DNA of 32,000 bases, from NCBI GenBank assembly GCA_963785065.1, contig CAWATX010000001.1, forward strand, positions 93,690-125,689, given 5' to 3'. The DNA is from an uncultured Alphaproteobacteria bacterium (GTDB lineage: Bacteria > Pseudomonadota > Alphaproteobacteria > Rhizobiales > Kaistiaceae). This document shows positions 5,084 through 18,928 of this stretch, in pieces (the first letter of the stretch is position 1; each line of letters opens with the position of its first letter). Made by a program: the position numbers and the translations under genes. The notes beneath the pieces were generated by a model that was not told the origin of the DNA, ran no database searches, and saw nothing but the letters and a program-made list of their open reading frames with translations.

Positions 5084-6049
5084 GTGACGACGATCTCCTT
5101 CCGGTCCGAAGTGTTTGCTCGCGGCGCACGCATGCTGCGCACTGCGCTTGGGCCAGCCATCTCCGGCTACCTCGAAGACCCGACCATCGTCGAGGTCATG
5201 CTCAACCCGGATGGCCGCCTCTGGATCGACCGGCTGTCGAGTGGACTGGAAGACACCGGCTCCCGCCTCGCGCCCGACGACGCCGAGCGCATCGTGCGCC
5301 TGGTGGCCCACCATGTCGGTGTCGAGGTACATGCGGGCAGCCCACGCGTGTCGGCCGAACTCCCGGAAAGCGGGGAACGATTCGAGGGGCTGGTGCCGCC
5401 GGTGGTGGCGGCACCATGCTTCGCCATCCGGCGGCCAGCCGTCGCCATCTATACCCTCGATGACTACGTCGCCGCTGGCATCATGGTGGCGGCGCAGGCG
5501 GAATATCTCCGCGCGGCGGTGCGCGAGCGCAAGAACGTCCTCGTCGCCGGTGGCACCAGCACGGGCAAGACGACGCTGGTCAACGCGATTCTCGCCGAGA
5601 TTGCCAAGACCGGCGATCGCATCGTGCTCATCGAAGATACACGCGAGCTGCAATGCGCCGCGCCGAACCTCGTGGCGCTGCGCACCAAGGACGGCGCCGC
5701 CTCGCTCTCCGACCTGGTTCGTTCCTCGCTCCGTCTTCGCCCCGACCGCATCCCGATCGGCGAGGTGCGCGGCGGCGAAGCGCTCGACCTCCTCAAGGCC
5801 TGGGGCACTGGTCATCCCGGCGGCGTCGGTACGTTACACGCCGGGTCCGCCATCGGAGCCCTCCACCGGCTGGAGCAACTCATCCAGGAGGCGGTGGTGA
5901 CAGTCCCGCGCGCCCTCATCGCTGAGACCATCAACGTCATCGCCGTTCTTGCCGGCCGCGGCGCGGCCCGCCGCCTTACCGAGCTCGCGGCGGTGAAGGG
6001 CCTCTCCTCCAACGGCGACTACGTCCTTACCCCAGCAGGAGAACCATGA
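5084..6049 (+). CDS. trbB: P-type conjugative transfer ATPase TrbB (VirB11 family).
   Basis: GTG start. Walker A is GGTSTGKTT, followed by [17 protein letters not shown] and [10 protein letters not shown]. It is the first gene of a coupled trb operon. Confidence 0.93.
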
Positions 6050-6372
6050 TGCGCATCACCCGCACTCGCTGTGCGCTCGCCGCGGCGTCGGCCTTCGCCT
6101 TCGTCGCTCTCGCGGCCGCGCCGGCCTATGCGGCCGGCACGAACATGCCCTGGGAGCAGCCGCTCAACCAGATCCTGGAAAGCGTCGAAGGCCCCGTCGC
6201 CAAGGTGCTCTCCGTCATCATCATCATCATTACGGGCCTGACGCTCGCCTTTGGCGAGACCGCCGGTGGCTTCCGGCGGCTGATCCAGATCGTTTTCGGT
6301 CTCTCGATCGCCTTTGCCGCCTCCAGCTTCTTCCTGAGCTTTTTCCAGTTCGGCGGCGGGGTGCTGGTGTGA
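6046..6372 (+). CDS. trbC: TrbC/VirB2 pilin precursor.
   Basis: 108 aa with a signal peptide (...AAAPAYAA) and two hydrophobic helices. ATGA overlap with the trbB stop. Confidence 0.85.
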   Translation: MMRITRTRCALAAASAFAFVALAAAPAYAAGTNMPWEQPLNQILESVEGPVAKVLSVIIIIITGLTLAFGETAGGFRRLIQIVFGLSIAFAASSFFLSFFQFGGGVLV

Positions 6373-6641
6373 TGGAGCAGGATACGCCCATCACCGGCTT
6401 CTATGCGCCCATCCACCGCGCACTGACCGAACCGATCCTTCTCGGCGGCGCGCCGCGCGCGGTCGCGATCGTCAACGGGACGCTCGCCGCCGCGATCGGC
6501 CTTGGGCTTCGGCTCTGGGTCGCCGGCGTGGTGATCTGGCTCATCGGCCATCTCGCCGCCGTCTGGGCAGCAAAGCGCGATGCCGCCTTCGTCGACGTCG
6601 TCCGCCGGCACCTCCGCTATCCGCAGCACATGGTCGCGTGA
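6369..6641 (+). CDS. trbD: TrbD (VirB3-like) conjugal transfer protein.
   Basis: 90 aa, with PIHRALTEPILLGGAPR and TM helices. The likely start is ATG 6372, overlapping the trbC TGA (TGATG). Confidence 0.85.
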   Translation: MMEQDTPITGFYAPIHRALTEPILLGGAPRAVAIVNGTLAAAIGLGLRLWVAGVVIWLIGHLAAVWAAKRDAAFVDVVRRHLRYPQHMVA

Positions 6642-6654
6642 GGCTCACGTCGTG

Positions 6655-9084
6655 ATGAACCTTTCCGAATACCGCCGCCGTAGCCAGGGCCTCGCCGACT
6701 TCCTTCCTTGGGCGGCGCTTGTGGCGAAGGGCGTCGTCCTCAACAAGGACGGCTCGTTTCAGCGGACGGCGCGCTTCCGCGGTCCCGATCTCGATTCAGC
6801 GACCCCAGCCGAGCTGGTGGCGATCACCGCGCGGCTGAACAACGCGCTCCGCCGCCTCGGCTCTGGCTGGGCCGTCTTCATCGAAGCCCAGCGTGTCCCG
6901 GCGCAGAGCTACCCCTCAAGCGAATTCCCCGATCCGATCTCGGTACTGGTTGACGCCGAGCGCCGCGCCCAATTCGAGGAGGAAGGCGCGCATTTCGAGA
7001 GCGGGTACTTCCTGACGCTCCTCTGGCTGCCGCCTGCCGACGATGCCGCCCGTGCCGAAGCCTGGCTCTACGAGAACCGTGCCCGGTCGGGCGCCGACTG
7101 GCGCGCCAAGCTCGAAGGCTTCATCGACCGCAACGATCGCGTGCTGGCGCTCCTCGAAGGCTTCATGCCGGAAGTGGATTGGCTCGACGACGGCGAGACG
7201 CTGACCTACCTGCATTCCTGCATCTCGACACGGCACCAGCGTGTGCGCGTGCCCGAGGCGCCGATCTATCTCGACGCGATCCTCACCGACGAGGACCTGA
7301 CCGGCGGCCTCGAGCCGCGCCTCGGGCGCGCGCATCTTCGCACCCTCACCATCATGGGCTTCCCGTCGCAAACCTGGCCCGGTTTGCTCGACGACCTCAA
7401 CCGTCTGGCTTTCCCCTATCGCTGGGCGACGCGGGCCATCTGCCTCGACAAGACCGACGCCACCAGGCTCCTCGGCAAGATCCGCCGGCAATGGTTCGCC
7501 AAGCGCAAGTCGATCATGGCGATCCTCAAGGAGGTGATGACCAACGAAGCGTCGGTGCTGATGGATTCCGACGCGGCCAACAAGGCAATCGACGCTGACG
7601 CAGCGCTGCAGGAGCTCGGGACCGACCTCGTCGGCGAGGCCTATGTCACCGCGACGGTCACCGTCTGGGATGAGGACGCTCATATTGCAGACGAGCGCCT
7701 GCGGCTGGTCGAGAAGACCATCCAGGGCCGCGATTTCACCTGTATGAGCGAAGGCGTCAACGCCGTGGAAGCCTGGCTCGGATCGCTGCCGGGCCACGTC
7801 TATGCGAACGTCCGCCAGCCGCCGGTCTCGACGCTCAATCTCGCCCATATGATGCCGTTCTCGGCGGTCTGGGCGGGGCCGGAACGGGATGAGCATTTCG
7901 GGGCGCCCCCGCTCTTCTTGGGCAAGACAGAGGGCTCGACCCCCTTCCGCTTCAGCCTCCATGTCGGTGACGTTGGCCACACCCTGATCGTCGGCCCGAC
8001 AGGTGCCGGCAAGAGCGTGCTCCTGGCGCTGATGGCGCTGCAGTTCCGCCGCTACGCCGGCGCACAGGTCTTCGCCTTCGATTTCGGCGGCTCGATCCGT
8101 GCCGCCGCGCTCGCGATGGGCGGCGACTGGCACGATCTCGGCGGTGCGCTGTCCGATAGTGCCAGCGAGCCGGTCGCGCTTCAGCCTCTCGCACGGGTCG
8201 ATGATCCCGGCGAACGGGCTTGGGCCGCCGAATGGGTTGCAACGCTGCTCGCCCGCGAGTCCGTCACCGTCACCCCCGAGTTGAAGGAGCACCTATGGTC
8301 GGCGCTGACCTCGCTTGCCTCCGCGCCCTTGCAGGAGCGCACCATCACCGGCCTTTCGGTGCTGCTGCAATCGAACGCTCTGAAGCGGGCGATCCAGCCC
8401 TACACCGTCGGCGGCCCCTGGGGCCGATTGCTTGATGCCGAAGCCGAGCAGCTCGGCAAAGCCGATGTCCAGGCCTTCGAGACGGAAGGCCTGATCGGTG
8501 CAGGCGCTGCTCCTGCGGTCCTCTCTTATCTGTTTCATCGCATCGAGGATCGCTTCGACGGCCGGCCCACCCTGCTCATTGTCGACGAGGGTTGGCTCGC
8601 CCTCGACGATCCCAGTTTCGCCGGCCAGCTGCGCGAGTGGCTGAAGACGCTCAGGAAAAAGAATGCGAGCGTCATCTTCGCCACCCAGTCGCTCGCCGAC
8701 ATCGACGGCAGCGTCATCGCGCCGGCGATCATCGAGAGCTGCCCGACCCGTATCCTGCTCCCGAATGAGCGCGCGCTCGAGCCGCAGATCGCCGCGATCT
8801 ACCGGCGCTTCGGTCTCAATGACCGGCAGATCGAGATTCTGAGCCGCGCCACCCCCAAGCGCGACTATTACTGCCAATCGCGCCGCGGCAATCGCCTGTT
8901 CGAGCTCGGCCTCTCGGAAGTCGCGCTCGCCTTCACCGCCGCGTCGGCGAAGTCCGACCAGAACACCATCGACGAGCTTGTCGCCGAGCACGGCCGCGAT
9001 GGCTTCGCCGCCGCCTGGCTGCGCCATCGCGGGCTCAATTGGGCGGCCGACATGCTCACCCCCTCGCAGGAGACCACCTCATGA
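6655..9084 (+). CDS. trbE: TrbE (VirB4-family) conjugal transfer ATPase.
   Basis: Starts MNLSEYRRRSQGLADFLPW. Walker A is GPTGAGKS and Walker B is LLIVDEGW. The ORF-track start at 6580 overlaps trbD; ATG 6655 (or GTG 6652) fits better. Confidence 0.93.
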   Translation: MNLSEYRRRSQGLADFLPWAALVAKGVVLNKDGSFQRTARFRGPDLDSATPAELVAITARLNNALRRLGSGWAVFIEAQRVPAQSYPSSEFPDPISVLVDAERRAQFEEEGAHFESGYFLTLLWLPPADDAARAEAWLYENRARSGADWRAKLEGFIDRNDRVLALLEGFMPEVDWLDDGETLTYLHSCISTRHQRVRVPEAPIYLDAILTDEDLTGGLEPRLGRAHLRTLTIMGFPSQTWPGLLDDLNRLAFPYRWATRAICLDKTDATRLLGKIRRQWFAKRKSIMAILKEVMTNEASVLMDSDAANKAIDADAALQELGTDLVGEAYVTATVTVWDEDAHIADERLRLVEKTIQGRDFTCMSEGVNAVEAWLGSLPGHVYANVRQPPVSTLNLAHMMPFSAVWAGPERDEHFGAPPLFLGKTEGSTPFRFSLHVGDVGHTLIVGPTGAGKSVLLALMALQFRRYAGAQVFAFDFGGSIRAAALAMGGDWHDLGGALSDSASEPVALQPLARVDDPGERAWAAEWVATLLARESVTVTPELKEHLWSALTSLASAPLQERTITGLSVLLQSNALKRAIQPYTVGGPWGRLLDAEAEQLGKADVQAFETEGLIGAGAAPAVLSYLFHRIEDRFDGRPTLLIVDEGWLALDDPSFAGQLREWLKTLRKKNASVIFATQSLADIDGSVIAPAIIESCPTRILLPNERALEPQIAAIYRRFGLNDRQIEILSRATPKRDYYCQSRRGNRLFELGLSEVALAFTAASAKSDQNTIDELVAEHGRDGFAAAWLRHRGLNWAADMLTPSQETTS

Positions 9085-9821
9085 CCCGTCGCCGTCTGCG
9101 CGCCCTCCTCACCGCGGGCACGGCCGCTCTCTTGATCACCGCCGCCAGCCTGCCGGCGCGGGCGTGGATCGTGTTCGACCCGACCAACTACGCGCAGAAC
9201 GTGCTCACCGCCGCTCGTGAGCTGCAGCAGGTCAACAACGAACTGCAGATGCTGGAGAACCAGGCGACGTCGCTCATCAATCAGGCGCGGAACCTCGCCA
9301 AACTGCCTTACTCCTCGCTGGCTTCGCTCCAGCAGCAGATTTCTCAGACCCAGCAGCTTCTCGGCCAGGCACAGCGCATCGCCTACAGCGTCTCGGCCAT
9401 CGACCAGGCCTTCCGCCAGACTTATCCGCAGGCCTATTCGAGCGCGACGTTCTCCGACCAGCTTCTCGCCGATGCAAAGACGCGCTGGCAGAACGCGCTC
9501 GCCGGCTTCCAGGACGCAATGCACGTGCAGGCCGGTGTCGTCACCAATCTCGACAGTACGCGATCACAGATCAGCGCGCTCGTCTCTTCCAGCCAAGGGG
9601 CGACGGGCGCCCTGCAGGCCGCGCAGTCCGGCAACCAGCTCGTCGCCTTGCAGACAACGCAGCTTTCCGACCTCACGGCGATCATGGCATCGATCGCGCG
9701 CGCCCAGAGCCTCGATGCCGCGCGCAGGCTGGAGGCAGAGGTCCAGGCGCAGGCCCAGACCAAGGCCTTCCTCAATTACGGTGCCGGTTACCAAGCCGGC
9801 TCCGCTGAGATGTTTCACTGA
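9081..9821 (+). CDS. trbJ: TrbJ (VirB5-like) conjugal transfer protein.
   Basis: MTRRRLRALL... signal peptide, then WIVFDPTNYAQNVLTAARELQQVNNELQMLENQA. ATGA overlap with the trbE stop. Confidence 0.9.
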   Translation: MTRRRLRALLTAGTAALLITAASLPARAWIVFDPTNYAQNVLTAARELQQVNNELQMLENQATSLINQARNLAKLPYSSLASLQQQISQTQQLLGQAQRIAYSVSAIDQAFRQTYPQAYSSATFSDQLLADAKTRWQNALAGFQDAMHVQAGVVTNLDSTRSQISALVSSSQGATGALQAAQSGNQLVALQTTQLSDLTAIMASIARAQSLDAARRLEAEVQAQAQTKAFLNYGAGYQAGSAEMFH

Positions 9822-10123
9822 TGCGCGGCCGGCTCCTCCATCTGCCCGCGATCGCACGCGCCATCGGCTTTGCACTGGTCGCGGTCGCCATGATCGCCGC
9901 CGTGCTGCATTTTCATGCGTCAGCATCGCACATCGCCCCGCATCAGACCGGTTCGTCGGCCGCGGCGGATCAGCTGGCAGCGGAGTTCAAGCGGTGCCAG
10001 CGCATCGCCGAAGAGGCCAATGATGACCCGGCCTGCGAGAAGGCCTGGGCGGAGAACCGCCGCCGCTTCTTCACTTACGCGCCGTCACCTACGCGCGCCC
10101 AACCGAAGACGAACGGCAGGTAG
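9821..10123 (+). CDS. trbK: Small membrane-anchored protein in the trbK position (TrbK-alt-type putative entry exclusion protein).
   Basis: 100 aa with an N-terminal TM segment. The C-terminal part reads CQRIAEEANDDPACEKAWAENRRRFF. TGATG overlap with the trbJ stop, and it lies between trbJ and trbL. Confidence 0.6.
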   Translation: MRGRLLHLPAIARAIGFALVAVAMIAAVLHFHASASHIAPHQTGSSAAADQLAAEFKRCQRIAEEANDDPACEKAWAENRRRFFTYAPSPTRAQPKTNGR

Positions 10124-10128
10124 GCGGC

Positions 10129-11394
10129 ATGGGCGGGACGGGGGTCATCGACAATTTCCTGGGGACGTTCACCCAGTATATCGATTCCGGCTTCGGCCTG
10201 GTGCAGGGCGATGTCCGCTGGCTTGCCGGCACGCTCATCGCCATCGATGTCACGCTCGCAGGCCTCTTCTGGGCGATGGCGCCCGACGAGGACGTGCTCG
10301 CACGCCTCATCCGTAAAATCCTCTATATCGGCTTCTTCGCCTTCATCATCAGTAACTACAACAGCCTTGCCGAGATCATCTACAACAGCTTCGCCGGCCT
10401 CGGCATCAAGGCCGGTGGCGGGGCGCTCAGCGCCACCCAGCTCCTGCAGCCCGGACGCATCGCGGAAGTCGGCATCGATGCCGGCAAGCCGATCCTCACC
10501 GCCATCTCCGGCATGATGGGCTTCACCAGCGTCTTCGCAAACCTGATTCAAATCCTGATCATGTTCGTGGCCTGGCTGATCGTCGTCATCAGCTTCTTCG
10601 TCATGGCGATCCAGCTCTTCGTCAGCCTGATCGAGTTCAAGCTGACGACCTTGGCAGGCTTCGCGCTGGTCCCCTTCGGATTGTTCGGGCGTACCGCCTT
10701 CCTCGCCGAGCGCGTGCTCGGCAACGTGGTGTCGAGCGGCATCAAGATCCTGGTGCTTGCCGTCATCATCGGCATCGGCTCGACGATCTTCGGCCAGTTC
10801 ACCAGCACATTGAACAATCCGCCGACCATTTCCGACGCGCTGACGCTGATCCTGGCTGCCCTGTCACTCCTCGGCCTTACCATCTTCGGCCCCGGCATCG
10901 CCAATGGCCTGATCGCCGGCGGTCCGCAGCTCGGCGCCGGCGCTGCCGTCGGTACCGGGCTCGCCGCTGCGGGTATCGGAGCTGCCGGGATCGCCGCAAC
11001 CGCCGGCGGTCTCTCCGCGGCGGGCGGCGCTGCTGCCGGAACGGCGCGTGACGGCGCGCGCGTCGCCGGCGGAGCGACCGCAGCCTATCGCGCTGGCGGT
11101 GCCATGGGCGTCGCGCAAGCAGCCGGTTCCCTCGCCATGAGCCCGCTCCGTCGTGCCGCCGGCAGCCTGAAGGAGAACTTCGCTTCAGGCGAGCGCGCCG
11201 TAATGCGCGGCGAGTCGCAAGCCGCCGCTGGCGGAGCGGGTTCCTCCGGAGCATCCGACGGCCCTCCGGCGTGGGCCCAACGCATGAAGCGCAACCAGAC
11301 CATCAACCGCGGCGTGTCAGCCGCCGATCATGCGATCCGCTCCGGCGACCGGCCAAGCGGCGGGCATCAGGCCGATCTTTCCGAGGGGAATTAG
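10129..11394 (+). CDS. trbL: TrbL (VirB6-like) polytopic membrane protein.
   Basis: 421 aa with multiple TM helices and an Ala/Gly-rich C-terminal tail. It occupies the expected operon position. Confidence 0.9.
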   Translation: MGGTGVIDNFLGTFTQYIDSGFGLVQGDVRWLAGTLIAIDVTLAGLFWAMAPDEDVLARLIRKILYIGFFAFIISNYNSLAEIIYNSFAGLGIKAGGGALSATQLLQPGRIAEVGIDAGKPILTAISGMMGFTSVFANLIQILIMFVAWLIVVISFFVMAIQLFVSLIEFKLTTLAGFALVPFGLFGRTAFLAERVLGNVVSSGIKILVLAVIIGIGSTIFGQFTSTLNNPPTISDALTLILAALSLLGLTIFGPGIANGLIAGGPQLGAGAAVGTGLAAAGIGAAGIAATAGGLSAAGGAAAGTARDGARVAGGATAAYRAGGAMGVAQAAGSLAMSPLRRAAGSLKENFASGERAVMRGESQAAAGGAGSSGASDGPPAWAQRMKRNQTINRGVSAADHAIRSGDRPSGGHQADLSEGN

Positions 11395-11397
11395 CTC

Positions 11398-12078
11398 ATG
11401 TTTCGACGATCGACGGTGCGCTACGGCAAGACACCCGAGCCCGAGACGCCCTACCAGCGGGCCGGCCAGGTCTGGGACGAACGCATCGGATCTGCCCGCG
11501 TACAGGCCAGGAACTGGCGGCTCGCCTTCTTCGGAGCGCTTGCTCTCAGTGGTGGGCTCGCGAGCGGTCTCGTCTGGCAGTCGGCGCGGGGCACCATCAC
11601 CCCCTGGGTCGTTCAGGTTGATAAGCTCGGCGAGGCGCAGGCCGTGGCTCCAGCGGTCGCCGACTATCATCCAACCGATCCTCAGATCGCCTGGTATCTC
11701 GCGCACTTCATTCAGGAGGTGCGCAGCGTTCCCGACGACCCCATCGTGCTGCGGCAGAACTGGCTCGACGCCTACGACTACGTCACCAGCAAGGGTGCGC
11801 TCGCCCTCAACGACTATGCGCGCACCACCGATCCCTTCGGCAAAGTCGGCAAGGAACAGGTTTCGGTCGATGTCGCGAGTGTCATCCGCGCCTCCGACAC
11901 CAGCTTCCGGGTGGAATGGGTCGAACACCACTATGTCAACGACGCGCTCAACGCGACCGAGCGCTGGAGCGCCATCCTCACCATCGTCGTGCAGACACCG
12001 ACCGATGCTGATCGGCTGAAGAAGAATCCGCTCGGCATCTACGTCCAAGCCCTCAACTGGTCAAAGGAACTCGGCTGA
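11398..12078 (+). CDS. trbF: TrbF (VirB8-like) conjugal transfer protein.
   Basis: 226 aa with YQRAGQVWDERIG, a single TM, and WVVQVDKLGEAQAV. Confidence 0.9.
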   Translation: MFRRSTVRYGKTPEPETPYQRAGQVWDERIGSARVQARNWRLAFFGALALSGGLASGLVWQSARGTITPWVVQVDKLGEAQAVAPAVADYHPTDPQIAWYLAHFIQEVRSVPDDPIVLRQNWLDAYDYVTSKGALALNDYARTTDPFGKVGKEQVSVDVASVIRASDTSFRVEWVEHHYVNDALNATERWSAILTIVVQTPTDADRLKKNPLGIYVQALNWSKELG

Positions 12079-13067
12079 TGCGCTCCTTCGCCGTCTCAAC
12101 CCTGCTGCTTGCGTCTCTTTCCCTCGCCGCCTGCGCGACCACCTGGAAGCCGCCGGCGATCAGTTACGACAATCTGCCGAAGCGCGCCACGCTGCTGCCC
12201 GAACCGCCAAAGCCTGTGCGGATCGTCGAACTCCCGAAAGTGTTGCCGTTGCCGGGCCAGCTCAAGCCCCTCCCCGGAAAGTCGAAGCTGCCGCCGGAAT
12301 CGCCCGACCCACATGTGCGCGTCGACAAGGCCAACGGCGCTGCCCGCGTCCAGCCGAAGGGCGCCGATTACCTCAATGCCATCCAGGTCTACCCCTTCGC
12401 CGAGGGTGCGCTGTACCAGGTCTACGCCACCCCTGGAGAGATCACCGATATTGCCCTGCAGCCGGGCGAGCAGCTCGCCGGCTCCGGCCCGGTCGCCGCC
12501 GGTGACACGGTCCGCTGGATCATTGGCGATACGGAGAGCGGCGCAGGCGCCGACAAGCGCATCCACATCCTGGTGAAGCCCACCCGTTCCGATCTCGACA
12601 CCAACCTCGTCATCAACACTGATCGCCGCACCTATCACCTCGAGCTGCATTCCGACGACAAGACCTACATGGCGTCGGTTTCCTGGGCCTACGCCGAAGA
12701 CCAGCTCATTGCACTGCGCCAGCAGAATGCCGCGGCTGATGCCGCCGCGCCGGTCATGAGCGGTGTTGACATCAACGCGCTCAATTTCCGCTACCGCATC
12801 GCGGGTGACAATCCGCCCTGGCGGCCGCTGCGCGCCTTCGACGACGGCCGCCAGGTGTTCATCGAGTTTCCGAGCGGCATCAGCCAAGGCGAGCTACCGC
12901 CGCTCTGGGTGATTGGCGCCGAAGGCGACGGACAGTTGGTCAACTACCGCGTCAAGCAGAATTACATGATCGTCGACCGCTTGTTCGCCGCCGCTGAGCT
13001 CAAGCTCGGCGCCAAGCACCAGCAGGTTGTCCGCATCGTGCGCACCGACGGAAGGCCCCGGTCGTGA
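12078..13067 (+). CDS. trbG: TrbG (VirB9-like) outer-membrane lipoprotein of the T4SS.
   Basis: Lipobox LSLAAC, then YPFAEGALYQVYATPGEITDIALQPGE. TGATG overlap with trbF. Confidence 0.9.
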   Translation: MRSFAVSTLLLASLSLAACATTWKPPAISYDNLPKRATLLPEPPKPVRIVELPKVLPLPGQLKPLPGKSKLPPESPDPHVRVDKANGAARVQPKGADYLNAIQVYPFAEGALYQVYATPGEITDIALQPGEQLAGSGPVAAGDTVRWIIGDTESGAGADKRIHILVKPTRSDLDTNLVINTDRRTYHLELHSDDKTYMASVSWAYAEDQLIALRQQNAAADAAAPVMSGVDINALNFRYRIAGDNPPWRPLRAFDDGRQVFIEFPSGISQGELPPLWVIGAEGDGQLVNYRVKQNYMIVDRLFAAAELKLGAKHQQVVRIVRTDGRPRS

Positions 13068-14227
13068 CGGACGAACCCCGGCAAGAGGAGAGGCCAGGCG
13101 CGGCCGCACGCCCGGCCGAGGAGATGCGCCTTCGCCCGCGGCGCCCGCCAGTAACCCGGCTGTCGCGCAAGGTCCTGCTCGGTCTCGGCGCGGCTGTCGT
13201 GGTCGCAATCGGCGGCATACTGCTGTTCGCGCTGAGGCCGCAGCACCACACCACCGGAACGGAGCTGTTCAACACCAACAACCGCGATACACCGGATGGC
13301 CTGGCAAACCTCCCGCGTGACTATACCGGTCTTCCGAAGCCCGTCCCCAAGCTTGGCCCGCCCCTTCCGGGCGACCTCGGCAAGCCGATCGTCAATGCCG
13401 GTGCCCCGGCGCCTGGCATGTCCGGCCCCGAGGAACAACGCATCGCACAGGAAGTGGAGGCTGCGCGGACGAGTCGCCTGTTCGCAACCACGAATGTCAC
13501 GCCGCCGAGCGCGCCGCCGCCGCCAGCGCAGGAAGCCGCCCCGCCCGCTCCCATCCGGGACGGCTCCTCCGCCAACCCAACCTCACAAGATCACGAGCTC
13601 GCTTTCCTCAACGGCTCCGTCGATCGGCGCACGACCAGCCCCGATCGCATCCAGCCGCCAGCGAGCCCTGCCGTGCTCCAGGCAGGGTCCGTCATTCCGG
13701 CCTCTCTGATCACGGGCCTCCGCTCCGATTTGCCTGGCGAGGTCACCGCTCAGGTGACCGAGGACGTCTATGACAGTCCAACGGGCAAGATCCTCCTGAT
13801 CCCTCAAGGAGCACGCTTGATTGGTCAATACGACGCCCGGGTCACTTTCGGCCAGTCCCGTGCCCTCCTCGTCTGGACTCGCCTCATTATGCCTAACGGC
13901 AAATCGATCGTGCTGGAGCGTCAGCCGGGCGTAGACCCACAAGGCTATGCCGGTCTCGCGGACCAGGTCGACAATCACTGGGGCATGCTGTTCAAGGCTG
14001 CGATCCTCTCGACAATCCTCTCAGTCGGCGCCGAGGCGGGAGCCGGCAACAACGAGAACAACCTCGCCCAAGCGATCCGCCAGGGCGCATCGCAAAGCAT
14101 CAATCAGGCCGGCGAGCGCGTGGTCGGCCGATCGCTCGATATCCAGCCGACCATCACGATTCGGCCGGGCTTCCCGGTGCGCGTCCTGGTCACCCGTGAT
14201 CTCGTACTGGAACCCTACGGCAGATAA
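13064..14227 (+). CDS. trbI: TrbI (VirB10-like) conjugal transfer protein.
   Basis: GTG start overlapping the trbG stop. It has an N-terminal TM, a Pro-rich linker, and a C-terminal VIPASLITGLRSDLPGEVTAQVTEDVYDS... Confidence 0.9.
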   Translation: MTDEPRQEERPGAAARPAEEMRLRPRRPPVTRLSRKVLLGLGAAVVVAIGGILLFALRPQHHTTGTELFNTNNRDTPDGLANLPRDYTGLPKPVPKLGPPLPGDLGKPIVNAGAPAPGMSGPEEQRIAQEVEAARTSRLFATTNVTPPSAPPPPAQEAAPPAPIRDGSSANPTSQDHELAFLNGSVDRRTTSPDRIQPPASPAVLQAGSVIPASLITGLRSDLPGEVTAQVTEDVYDSPTGKILLIPQGARLIGQYDARVTFGQSRALLVWTRLIMPNGKSIVLERQPGVDPQGYAGLADQVDNHWGMLFKAAILSTILSVGAEAGAGNNENNLAQAIRQGASQSINQAGERVVGRSLDIQPTITIRPGFPVRVLVTRDLVLEPYGR

Positions 14228-14246: not shown

Positions 14247-14507
14247 ATGGCAAAGCTGAAGCTCGGGGCGATTGCCGACGACAAGCCCGTCAAGCTGACG
14301 ATCGAACTGCCAGCCGCTATCCATCGCGACCTTGTCGCCTACGCCAATGTTCTTGGCCGCGAAACGGGTGAGGCCGCGGTCGAGCCGGCGAGGCTGATCG
14401 GACCGATGCTGGCGCGCTTCATGGCGACCGATCGGGCGTTTGCAAGATTGCGACGGACCGGCTCTGCGGGACAGCACTTGCCGTCGAGGAGAGCGCAATC
14501 AGAATAG
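14247..14507 (+). CDS. DUF2274-family small protein that typically terminates ICE-type trb operons.
   Basis: Starts MAKLKLGAIADDKPVKLTIELPAAIHRDLVAYANVL. It lies 20 nt after trbI. Confidence 0.75.
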   Translation: MAKLKLGAIADDKPVKLTIELPAAIHRDLVAYANVLGRETGEAAVEPARLIGPMLARFMATDRAFARLRRTGSAGQHLPSRRAQSE

Positions 14508-15386
14508 TTGGCGTGCGCGCGCCTCGTCGCGCATGAAGGCTACGAACCGTCCAACGGCGGGATCTTCCGCCTCCGAATTCCACGCGAGTTCCACCTGAAC
14601 CCAGGCGTTCTCTTCGCGGATCGGCCGGTAAGCGATGCCCGGAAACGGGACCTCGGACTGGCTTCTGGTGGCAAGCGTGATCCCGAAACCGGCCGCGACC
14701 AATGCAAGGATGCTTTGCTTGCTCGCGGCATGCGCTTCGAACCGAACGCCGGATCCCATGAGCGAGGCGTAGAACTGGCGCGCCGCTTGGCTCTCACCCC
14801 ACCCCTGGACGAGCAGAGTCTCCCTGCGCAGGTCTTCCCACCTGAGCGTCTCCAGCTCCAGCAGTTGATGCTCGCGCGGGATCGCCGCAAGCATTCGCTC
14901 GCGGTAGAGCGGCATCGACGGGGCGTTGGGCCATAGCGTATGGTGCGGCATCAGTGCGACATCGACGCGGCGTTCCTGCACGGTCAACTGTATCTCCGGC
15001 TCGCTCAGTTCCGAGACACTGAGCCTGACGTCCGGGTGGCGCATCCGCCAACTGCAGAGGAGCTCGGCGAGCGGCGCGCCGACCGGCGGCATGCGCACTG
15101 CAAGGCGAATCTCACCAACCATGCCGTTGCCGTTCCGGTCGCTGGCGAGCTTGGCAGCATCGAGTTCCGCCAGCGCCCGGCGGATATGCGGCAGAACCGC
15201 CTTGCCGCCGCTGGTCAGCCGAACGCCTGCATGACCGCGTTCGAACAACGCCAGGCCAAGCTCGTCCTCCAATCGCCCGATCCGGCGGCTGATTGTGGAC
15301 GTGTTGATCCCGAGCGACTTGGCAGCGCGGGTGAAGTTTGAGGCAGTCGCCGACGCCTCAACGTAAACGAGATCGCGGATTTCCAT
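14499..15386 (-). CDS. LysR-family transcriptional regulator.
   Basis: N-terminal HTH NFTRAAKSLGINTSTISRRIGRLEDELGLALFER with a LysR substrate-binding-like C-terminal half. A dyad ATCTC-N9-GAGAT (15387-15405) abuts its start codon. Confidence 0.9.
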   Translation of the reverse strand: MEIRDLVYVEASATASNFTRAAKSLGINTSTISRRIGRLEDELGLALFERGHAGVRLTSGGKAVLPHIRRALAELDAAKLASDRNGNGMVGEIRLAVRMPPVGAPLAELLCSWRMRHPDVRLSVSELSEPEIQLTVQERRVDVALMPHHTLWPNAPSMPLYRERMLAAIPREHQLLELETLRWEDLRRETLLVQGWGESQAARQFYASLMGSGVRFEAHAASKQSILALVAAGFGITLATRSQSEVPFPGIAYRPIREENAWVQVELAWNSEAEDPAVGRFVAFMRDEARARQLF

Positions 15387-15764
15387 ATCTCAATCGCCCG
15401 GAGATCTCACCGTGCGGGCGCGGTGTTGGCTCACGCGTTTGCCAAGCGGCTCGGATGGCGTTGCGTTGCGCCGCCGGGTAGCAAAGACCGACATCCTCCG
15501 CCCGTCGACGCCACCCGCTACCTCGCTGAACCCTTCACGCGCCGAGGACCGTACTCGCTGATGGCGCCGACGATCGGCACCCCAACCTCCCCGTAACGAT
15601 GCCTCATGCGGCGTGGTGCCTGAAGGACGCGGTACCGCAATCACGGCGTCGCTTCGAGGGCGCTGGCGAGATTCGCCTTGCCGCATGGGCCGCATCAGCG
15701 TCATCGTTGTCTCCTGTGCGCTGGCAGCCCCCGACATTAGCAATTGAAAACGCCGCCTGGGACA

Positions 15765-15784
15765 ACCTGTAGAATTACACAGCT
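15765..15784. promoter_or_regulatory. lux-box-like 20-bp element ACCTGTAGAATTACACAGCT.
   Basis: It has the CTG-N10-CAG core. By my count, 15 of 20 positions are identical to the Vibrio fischeri lux box ACCTGTAGGATCGTACAGGT. It lies 2 nt beyond the luxR-family stop codon and faces the 15390-15760 gap and lysR. Confidence 0.5.
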
Positions 15785-15786
15785 TG

Positions 15787-16527
15787 TCAATCGCCAGTCG
15801 TTCGATGTGGCAGGCCGTTGGTCGCGACGAGACGGGCGACAGCCTGGGTTATGTTTCGTGCGCCAAGTTTTTCCTTTGCCTTTTCCAAATGGAAGGCAGC
15901 CGTCCGTTGGGAAACGCCAATTATCTTGCCGATCTCCCAAGTCGACTTGCCTTGGGCGGCCCAGTTAAGGCACTCAATTTGGCGTCGCGACAAGCCGGTG
16001 CTCTCGAACGGCTGTATCGCGCGGGTTCTTCTGCGAGCGTGTGCATGGAAATTGACAGCCAGAAGACGGAGAAGCTGCGCATTCCAATGAATACTCCGAC
16101 AGAATGCAGCACGATTGTCACTGGTTGCGAAGGTAATCACGGCGATGGAGCCGTCGTGCTCGTGAATCGGGATCGTGAAGCCGTATTTGATCCCGAATTG
16201 AGCGGCCTCATCAAAGAGCTGCTGTTCCGGCCTGAGCGCGTCGAGCGGCGCGAAGTCCGGTCCCCATGTGAACGCGCCCGAATGATTGAGGGCGTGACGG
16301 ATGACTGGATCGATGCGCTCGTAGTGGCATGCGGCGTACCGATTGATCCACGCTGCCGGATAATTCGAGATGACATCTGGGCGAAACGTCGACAACCGCG
16401 GCATCGCCAGGTAGGCGAAATTGTTCAAATCAAGTGCATTCGCTGCGTACAGCATCGCCCCGACGAGCGCGGCCTCGCCGTCAGCCTGAAAGAGCATGTC
16501 GACGAAGCCTTGGAACAGGTCGTACAT
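15787..16527 (-). CDS. LuxR-family regulator with an N-terminal autoinducer-binding domain. It is a LuxR solo, since no luxI-type gene is in the window.
   Basis: YPAAWINRYAACHYERIDPV gives W-x3-Y-x8-DP, matching TraR W57/Y61/D70/P71. FTWG and FGIKYGFTIP follow. The C-terminal GerE HTH reads LSRRQIECLNWAAQGKSTWEIGKIIGVSQRTAAFHLEKAKEKLG. Confidence 0.88.
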   Translation of the reverse strand: MYDLFQGFVDMLFQADGEAALVGAMLYAANALDLNNFAYLAMPRLSTFRPDVISNYPAAWINRYAACHYERIDPVIRHALNHSGAFTWGPDFAPLDALRPEQQLFDEAAQFGIKYGFTIPIHEHDGSIAVITFATSDNRAAFCRSIHWNAQLLRLLAVNFHAHARRRTRAIQPFESTGLSRRQIECLNWAAQGKSTWEIGKIIGVSQRTAAFHLEKAKEKLGARNITQAVARLVATNGLPHRTTGD

Positions 16528-18041: not shown

Positions 18042-18928
18042 TGCGTCTCCGAAGACACTTCGAAGCGGGCTGCCAGGTTGCGGGGAAGAGTGTCGAGATG
18101 CTCCGCCCTGAGCAGCGTCACGAAGTTCTCGTCCCTCAGGAGCTTGCGCAGCGCTTCGGTCGCGAAGATCAGCCGATCCCTCGTTGCCTCCGCTTTGCGG
18201 ATCAGGTGCCGCTTCTTGTCCGTATCCTGGCGATAAGCACGGATAAGGGAGTCCGACGACACGTTATCCTGTTGCTTTGGCCCGTTTGTGCGAAGTCCCT
18301 TGCCGCGTCGTCGACGCTGCTCGATCACGCGTTTGGCGATCATGAGCTTACGGCCCCTGAGCTCCTTCTTTTCGTAGGCCTGCTGAAGCGCGCGCTGAAC
18401 ACCCGAGTCATCGGCCTCGGCGATCTCGACGGCGACGCTGACCGGGAGATGGCCGGATTCGACGGCACGGAGGAGGCGGTGTTCGCCCTTTTCCAGGAGC
18501 CGGATCACTCCTCGGACGTACTCCGCTGACAAGTCGGTCTTCTGCGCAATCTCCAACTCGCGGTATCCGCGGCGCTTCAAGCCTTCGATGTCGTGGAGCA
18601 GGTCGATAGCGCGATGCTGTCGGCGCGCACAGTTTTCGACAAGGCTCATCACCAGGCAATCGTCGGTATCTGCCTCGACCACCAGAGCGGGGATTTCTAG
18701 CTGCCCAAGCAGCCGATAGGCCTCGAGCCTGCCTTGACCACAGACGAGGTCGTAGCGCGGGCCATCGGTCCGCTCACGTTTCGTCACTGTGATCGGCTTC
18801 TTCAGGCCCAGTTCGGCGATATTCCCAACAATCTCCTTAAAAAGACGGGAGTTTCGCAGGCGCGGATTGACGACATCGACCTGATCGACCGGAATCAACT
18901 CGACGGCTGGAACAGCCAAAGCTTTCAT
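18038..18928 (-). CDS. ParB-like N-terminal domain / HTH protein (ParB paralogue 1).
   Basis: 296 aa, containing LIPVDQVDVVNPRLRN...LGLKKPITV...YDLVCGQGRLEAYRLLG...LVENCARR, HTH LEIAQKTDLSAEYVRGVIRLLEKG, and a basic tail. Its ATG overlaps the recombinase TGA (TGATG at 18926-18930). Confidence 0.75.
   Translation of the reverse strand: MKALAVPAVELIPVDQVDVVNPRLRNSRLFKEIVGNIAELGLKKPITVTKRERTDGPRYDLVCGQGRLEAYRLLGQLEIPALVVEADTDDCLVMSLVENCARRQHRAIDLLHDIEGLKRRGYRELEIAQKTDLSAEYVRGVIRLLEKGEHRLLRAVESGHLPVSVAVEIAEADDSGVQRALQQAYEKKELRGRKLMIAKRVIEQRRRRGKGLRTNGPKQQDNVSSDSLIRAYRQDTDKKRHLIRKAEATRDRLIFATEALRKLLRDENFVTLLRAEHLDTLPRNLAARFEVSSETQ

Follow-up and report, generated by a model that had tools for sequence, protein, structure and literature searches.

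A luxR gene without its luxI and a retained lux-type promoter facing lysR beside the trb genes of a putative alphaproteobacterial conjugative element

The luxR-lysR region and its lux-type box

The region discussed here lies in a stretch of 32,000 nucleotides, hereafter called the window (contig CAWATX010000001.1, positions 93,690 to 125,689, assembly GCA_963785065.1), from an uncultured alphaproteobacterium of the Kaistiaceae and consists of a gene for a LuxR-family receptor of N-acyl-homoserine lactones (AHLs), a lux-type box immediately downstream, a gap of some 400 bp and a lysR gene. The window comes from contig C1 of a genome of 4.53 Mb with 66% GC that is 94% complete. The genes are arranged in the order trbB to trbI and a DUF2274 gene on the plus strand, then lysR, the 400-bp gap and luxR on the minus strand; beyond luxR follow two RepB/ParB-like genes, a large serine recombinase and AbiEii (Table 1). 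An earlier note on this DNA had described the receptor as a LuxR solo with an intact ligand pocket and had offered three readings of the gap, namely a deleted or decayed luxI with the box as a relic, a box that drives read-through into lysR, and a small basic protein or RNA as the output.

Table 1. Features of the luxR-lysR region and of the adjoining transfer genes, in coordinates of the window
Feature	Coordinates	Strand	Remarks
trbB-to-trbI mating-pore operon	5084-14227	+	Pfam TrbI, CagX (TrbG), TrbL, T2SSE (TrbB) and TrbE-type domains
trbI, near the 3' end of the mating-pore operon	13064..14227	+	Pfam TrbI
DUF2274 gene, last of the trb operon	14247..14507	+	Pfam DUF2274, E 6e-33; convergent with lysR, 9-nt overlap
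lysR, LysR-family regulator	14499..15386	-	Pfam HTH_1 and LysR_substrate; presumed output of the promoter
Rest of the 104-codon frame, non-conserved filler	15390..15647	-	Probably transcribed as lysR leader; no LuxI or Rfam match, no terminator
First ~19 codons after the ATG, conserved as DNA	15648..15701	-	Candidate translation-initiation region or regulator binding site
Shine-Dalgarno AGGAG (15715-15711) and, six nt later, ATG (15704-15702)	15702..15715	-	Putative former luxI translation start
-10-like element CTAATG	15735..15740	-	Predicts a transcription start near 15728
Lux-type box ACCTGTAGAATTACACAGCT	15765-15784	-	2 nt past the luxR stop; single copy in the window
28-bp palindrome GACAAGCTGTGTAATTCTACAGGTTGTC with the 20-bp box as core	15761..15788	-	Predicted LuxR binding site, putative operator of the former luxI promoter
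luxR, AHL receptor of the LuxR family, 246 aa	15787-16527	-	Pfam Autoind_bind and GerE; apparently intact

The LuxR protein matches Autoind_bind (PF03472, E 7e-29, 100.7 bits) and GerE (PF00196, E 5e-15, 55.4 bits), both above the cut-offs, and aligns over its full length to the PDB sequences of TraR, RhlR, QscR and LasR. The canonical pocket residues seen earlier are part of a complete set: alignment to the PDB sequences of TraR and RhlR places all nine canonical residues of the family at W60, Y64, D73, P74, W88, G116, E185, L187 and G193 (in TraR W57, Y61, D70, P71, W85, G113, E178, L182 and G188), and all nine are invariant across 13 related LuxRs. In comparison with its 96% identical counterpart in locus L020, luxR has a ratio of nonsynonymous to synonymous substitution rates (dN/dS) of 0.14, with 6, 6 and 27 differences at the first, second and third codon positions, indicating that the gene is under purifying selection. 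The closest named homologues belong to Bradyrhizobium and Tardiphaga (46-52% identity).

As the earlier note stated, there is no LuxI-type synthase in the window, in which no match to PF00765 is found. The term LuxR solo is appropriate locally, no luxI being adjacent; elsewhere the genome carries a second, unrelated luxR-luxI pair on contig C3 (G000:C3:439060-440216, locus L004 398-2208) with its only clear Autoind_synth match. The C3 LuxR is 27% identical to that of the window, which rules out that the window luxR is a recent duplicate of it. A one-base shift at GAGTTCGATC (near L004 700) divides the C3 luxI into two overlapping frames. This shift may be genuine or an artifact of assembly; in the former case the genome would lack an intact AHL synthase.

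Read directly, the box displays a dyad symmetry of about 20 bp with a CTG-N10-CAG core. Its position just past the luxR stop is as first described, and it can now be defined more precisely as the core of a 28-bp palindrome that overlaps the luxR stop codon (TGA, 15789-15787). A hand count against the lux box of Vibrio fischeri, ACCTGTAGGATCGTACAGGT, gives agreement at 15 of 20 positions, the same figure as before. The box is more than a chance occurrence: by chance a window would hold 0.22 matches to the pattern CTGT-N8-ACAG, the genome has no second copy of the box, and a weight matrix derived only from the luxI-promoter boxes of five relatives (L029, L019, L030, L031 and L033) ranks the site first among 4.53 million genome positions, with 18.4 bits versus 16.7 bits for the next. 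The sole other CTGT-N8-ACAG match in the window, CTGTCGGCGCGCACAG at 18617-18632, lies inside the second RepB/ParB-like gene, has a GC-rich centre, scores poorly with the box matrix and is probably due to chance.

luxI in related modules and the luxI-less loci

Where is luxI found in related elements? A comparison of this kind, which the earlier note had proposed, was made with luxI-bearing relatives chosen by similarity of LuxR or LysR, most of them metagenome contigs or metagenome-assembled genomes, in which single-base frameshifts may be errors. In all nine luxI-bearing modules examined luxI occupies the slot of the gap in the window, in the order luxR, luxI, lysR. Five of these loci, with LuxRs 45-54% identical to that of the window, contain luxR, luxI (210-242 aa, PF00765), lysR, a convergent DUF2274 gene and trbI (L019 on plasmid p187_1 of Bradyrhizobium sp. 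187; L024, L027, L028 and L029 on metagenome contigs), followed by trbG, trbF and trbL where the contig is long enough. Three further modules with LysRs 74-77% identical (P0122 contig, L030 and L031/L032) have the same order including DUF2274 and trbI, and one more (L033/L034, LysR 71%) has the luxR-luxI-lysR trio without adjacent trb genes, so that the linkage to DUF2274 and trbI holds in eight of nine. The flanking genes are orthologous to those of the window, with identities of 56-63% for TrbI, 72-73% for TrbG and 65-73% for DUF2274, and the DUF2274 gene takes the same position in the relatives.

Two of these modules are of interest in themselves. In L033 (3374-5888) MarR and MFS genes follow the trio in place of DUF2274 or trb genes, and luxR, luxI and lysR are therefore able to move or be maintained together without the trb operon. 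In L030 (3096-4057) a DDE transposase and a small open reading frame have entered the otherwise intact module between luxR and luxI, on the upstream side of the box.

The lysR gene is the third constant member of these modules. LysR homologues 71-77% identical to that of the window stand directly after luxI in the P0122 contig, L030, L031/L032 and L033/L034, and the window LysR is only 26-29% identical to those of L019, L024 and L027-L029; two types of LysR therefore share the slot between luxI and DUF2274. A cassette swap of lysR, suspected from the low identities, was dropped because modules of this same luxR-luxI-lysR kind also contain the LysRs 71-77% identical to that of the window. Over the first 80 codons the comparison with L020 gives a dN/dS of 0.03 and 0, 1 and 11 differences by codon position, pointing to purifying selection on lysR as well. 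Most relatives inspected have lysR linked to DUF2274 and trbI, including G258 (L038 3694-8557), in which no luxR or luxI occurs within 7.7 kb upstream of the related lysR and lysR follows catabolic cargo genes. The linkage to DUF2274 and trbI suggests a function of LysR in the element, and LysR is presumed to regulate the conjugative element.

LuxRs at least 76% identical to that of the window were found in only five other loci, L020/L021 (96%), L006 (90%), L023 (78%), L005 (77%) and L022 (76%), and luxI is absent from all five. In a tree of LuxRs with five of the six luxI-less loci, L006 being omitted for a frameshift, these receptors are monophyletic (support 100/100), and their stem is long, at 1.08 substitutions per site; the clade as defined here has six members only. 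Moreover, the luxI-less loci share the architecture and length of the gap, which measures about 400 nt in four loci and about 190 nt in L006, where some 210 nt of the gap sequence are missing after a further deletion. A single ancestral loss of luxI is the simplest account of this distribution.

Within the clade, the LuxRs of the window and of L020 have a C-terminal extension of five residues (RTTGD; window 15787-15804) as compared with L005, L022 and L023. The luxR stop now abuts the box because the ancestral stop was lost; in L005, L022 and L023 it lies, by our reading of the sequences, about 19-22 nt before the box, and the spacing of 2 nt is peculiar to the subclade containing the window. 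In L006 (6001-6750) luxR is frameshifted in the helix-turn-helix region and the contig ends 21 nt into lysR, such that an assembly error or a pseudogene is possible. L005 (6001-8255) is a decayed copy of the element in a metagenome-assembled genome of the same genus, in which luxR and a remnant of the luxI start are joined directly to trbG, lysR, DUF2274 and trbI are deleted and a tyrosine integrase is found some 1.1 kb ahead of luxR.

The promoter region and the body of the gap

The earlier note had seen a promoter-like geometry between the box and the gap, with an AGGAG six nt before the ATG at 15704. These coordinates are correct, and the elements are retained in the luxI-less loci: the box is kept and the Shine-Dalgarno sequence and ATG are invariant in all six. 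A hexamer resembling NNAAT(C/G) is located, by our own count, 24-26 nt past the ACAGG half-site in the window, L006 and L023, which lack luxI, as well as in L030, L031 and L033, which carry it (CTAATG in the window and N-CAAT-C/G in the relatives). A scan of the gap for the sigma-70 consensus found no promoter; an activator-dependent promoter would be expected to lack such a match. Furthermore, a profile of five luxI promoters aligns to the clade member L006 without a break from box to ATG (E 5e-6), and the ATG at 15704 is therefore taken to be the old luxI start codon. The spacing is also similar: GACAAGCTGTGTAATTCTACAGGTTGTC is 60 nt ahead of this ATG in the window, GACAACCTGTGCATCTGCACAGGTTGTC is 55 nt ahead of the luxI ATG in L029, the box of L019 is 52 nt ahead and, by our reading of the sequences, CCCCTGTGCAACTGCACAGG(A/G)T precedes the luxI start at a similar distance in L030, L031 and L033. 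Taken together, the alignments identify the box as a luxI-promoter box homologous to those of the luxI-bearing relatives. In L024 (1276-1370), L027 (4121-4220) and L028 (6738-6822) luxI is preceded by another palindrome of the type CCTCC...GGAGG (e.g. TCACCTCCCTTAGTTGCAGGAGGTGA), not CTGTG...CACAG, which suggests that DNA recognition has diverged within the family.

What occupies the place of luxI in the window? As noted before, an open frame of 104 codons extends from the ATG to a TGA at 15392-15390, 3 nt before the lysR ATG at 15386. The identity between the two subclades of luxI-less loci is 57-74% from the box to about codon 19 and 20-40% beyond, with many insertions and deletions, and beyond this codon the similarity between the subclades is by this measure effectively random. 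The frame measures 104, 104, 30, 90, 64 and 40 codons in the six loci with differing end points, and paired insertions and deletions in the conserved 5' part cause the same bases to be read in different frames in different loci. In comparison with L020 the frame has a dN/dS of 0.62 with differences spread evenly over the codon positions (10/9/13), and its GC content by codon position is flat (0.70/0.66/0.66). At the third position the GC content is 0.66 for the frame versus 0.77 for lysR; the earlier estimate of about 66% for the frame was correct, that of about 74% for lysR somewhat low. The frame has no Pfam match, the gap contains no relevant Rfam family, and folding of the leader is not unusual (z-score -0.57). 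These observations indicate that the 104-codon frame is neither a gene nor a conserved protein and that the bulk of the gap consists of filler whose rate of change is close to neutral.

Remnants of luxI were sought within the gap as well, as the earlier note had recommended. Neither tblastn with eight LuxI proteins from the closest modules (E-values no better than 0.005 against a very small database, without composition correction) nor an eight-sequence LuxI profile run against all six frames of the six orthologous gaps, where all scores were negative, detected similarity to LuxI. A few weak collinear hits that BLAST gave in the 104-codon frame (E 0.14-0.7, again without composition correction) found no support in the profile search; they are treated as compositional, and a decayed luxI in the gap was rejected. 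In comparison with luxI genes only the start region of the gap is positionally homologous, and nucleotide matches to luxI-bearing loci are confined to the box and to the lysR start with about 12 nt upstream of it. A repeat or mobile insertion in the gap was likewise discarded, the box being unique in the genome and a plasmid database containing no similar DNA. No terminator-like site was found between the promoter and lysR, nor is there one in the luxI-lysR spacers of L031 and L033.

A predicted route from LuxR to lysR and its alternatives

The explanation that we favor, with a probability of about 0.65 for the whole, sees in this region the regulatory end of an integrative conjugative element (ICE) that has lost luxI and whose LuxR-dependent promoter now feeds lysR. 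Ancestrally, the unit would have consisted of luxR, lux box, luxI and lysR, arranged tail-to-tail with the trb mating-pore operon. A single event would have removed luxI and left some 315 nt of filler that separate its old start codon from lysR; luxR would have been kept along with its binding site and, of the old luxI gene, the -10 element, the start codon and the ribosome-binding site. The circuit could be imagined to operate as follows. LuxR would bind AHL made by other cells or by another locus, occupy the palindrome and activate transcription on the minus strand from about position 15728. Ribosomes would start at the former luxI ATG and read the 104-codon frame, itself without meaning, to within 3 nt of lysR, so that the long leader stays covered and ribosomes are delivered to lysR; the LysR protein made in this way would regulate element functions as the next step downstream. 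In that case the element has exchanged a self-signalling circuit for a listening-only one, and the 104-codon frame is a by-product. Read-through from the box into lysR, the second of the earlier readings, is the best-supported present function given a gap devoid of a terminator, albeit deduced from sequence, and the promoter is probably alive and feeding lysR. The link to a conjugative element that had been proposed for the unit is supported by its conserved linkage to DUF2274 and trbI: luxR and lysR adjoin both genes in the window, connecting quorum-sensing genes with transfer genes.

Several points weigh against this explanation. 1) The transcription start and the read-through into lysR are predictions. 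2) The leader frame stops 103 nt before lysR in L022 and 37 nt before it in L023, and translational coupling is therefore not a conserved feature. 3) In L005, which has lost lysR, DUF2274 and trbI, the promoter has survived, and it can thus last for some time without its presumed target. 4) lysR could have a promoter of its own inside the gap. 5) In G258 lysR follows catabolic cargo with no luxR or luxI nearby, and LysR may accordingly not be dedicated to transfer. 6) The luxI-less LuxRs stand on a long branch, and recombination rather than simple loss in place may explain the arrangement.

Alternatively, box and promoter could be inert after the loss of luxI, with lysR transcribed from its own promoter and the conservation reflecting limited time or mutational chance. 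The survival of the promoter in the L005 copy would agree with this, as would the frameshifted luxR of L006, which is possibly an assembly error. However, the sharp drop in identity past codon 19 within the same 400 bp is hard to fit with neutral decay, luxR appears to be under purifying selection and the genome offers LuxR no comparably strong box elsewhere, making an inert promoter unlikely. Of the first of the earlier readings the deletion of luxI is strongly supported by synteny; that the box is a relic is doubtful, the box, promoter and start region being conserved while the rest has decayed.

Less probable still is that the box serves luxR and not lysR, be it through an antisense transcript into luxR or through the 28-bp sequence acting as hairpin terminator or roadblock for luxR. 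The palindrome overlaps the luxR stop, can form a hairpin of nine pairs and is followed by a conserved GTTT run; lux boxes are moreover symmetric and can act in both directions, and asrpaR of Rhodopseudomonas palustris is reportedly such an antisense transcript. Nevertheless, the conserved Shine-Dalgarno sequence, ATG and -10-like element on the lysR side would be left unexplained, no comparable -10-like element is seen by eye on the plus strand at a matching distance, and the wider spacing between stop and box in L005, L022 and L023 means that the overlap is not conserved. A small product as the output, whether a regulatory RNA, a peptide encoded by the conserved ~19 codons at the start or the Arg-rich protein of 104 residues, has a very slim chance, since the strong Shine-Dalgarno sequence with ATG, the recurrence of the first six codons (MTLMRP) and of a PRSD stretch in several loci and one metagenome annotation that calls the 104-residue frame a gene are set against the even distribution of differences over codon positions, the conserved DNA read in different frames, the variable frame length and the lack of a Pfam or Rfam match or unusual RNA folding; the third of the earlier readings is thus not supported.

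Comparison with known systems and meaning for the element

How does the promoter that probably feeds lysR compare with known systems? The tandem arrangement of rpaR, lux box and rpaI has been described (PMC10305029). As in RpaR/BjaR-type loci of Bradyrhizobium and Rhodopseudomonas, where a CTG-N10-CAG palindrome within about 20-100 nt past the receptor gene activates the next gene, activation of the next gene is predicted for the window. In contrast to these loci the synthase is missing, and what lies ahead of the promoter is some 315 nt of filler followed by lysR; the likeness is one of layout. TraR/TraI of Ti plasmids and TraR/TraI1 of ICEMlSymR7A likewise place a LuxR-type receptor on a conjugative element beside transfer genes; however, the window has no luxI at the head of the trb operon, and its module runs towards the 3' end of trb and has LysR as the next gene. 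Quorum-sensing genes on Mesorhizobium ICEs are known to undergo loss, duplication and frequent pseudogenization (PMC8627217). With LuxR solos the window shares an intact receptor without adjacent synthase that is presumably eavesdropping. It differs in that the origin is traceable, the former luxI promoter and start codon being apparently still in place and the presumed target being the former downstream operon partner, and in that the organism, having another luxR-luxI pair on C3, may not be signal-blind. A LysR-family regulator on an alphaproteobacterial ICE has a precedent in AhaR, which activates the integrase gene of the Azorhizobium ICEAc and relays an external chemical signal to mobility (PMC9601964). 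However, AhaR senses a flavonoid directly, whereas in the window the signal would enter via LuxR one step upstream, and the two are likened by analogy.

Literature searches, with subscription journals outside their scope, found no description of the luxR-luxI-lysR-DUF2274-trbI module. LuxR solos and quorum-sensing control of conjugation are already well known, and the case is a tidy, fairly ordinary regulatory rewiring of modest practical value. What looks less familiar is LysR as a conserved third member of the module convergent with trb and the clean retention of the promoter after loss of the synthase. It is conceivable, if doubtful, that luxR, luxI, lysR, DUF2274 and trbI constitute an undescribed relay from quorum sensing to LysR that controls a widespread alphaproteobacterial ICE family; the present clade would then be a listening-only variant whose receptor diverged fast after the loss of luxI (stem 1.08) and may answer a foreign signal and trigger transfer near particular neighbors or hosts. 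If the favored explanation is true, the luxI-bearing and luxI-less loci would trace stepwise the conversion, on a mobile element, of quorum sensing by self-signalling into eavesdropping with LysR as the sole output, and luxR-luxI-lysR at the end of the trb operon would be a candidate switch for ICE transfer in soil alphaproteobacteria.

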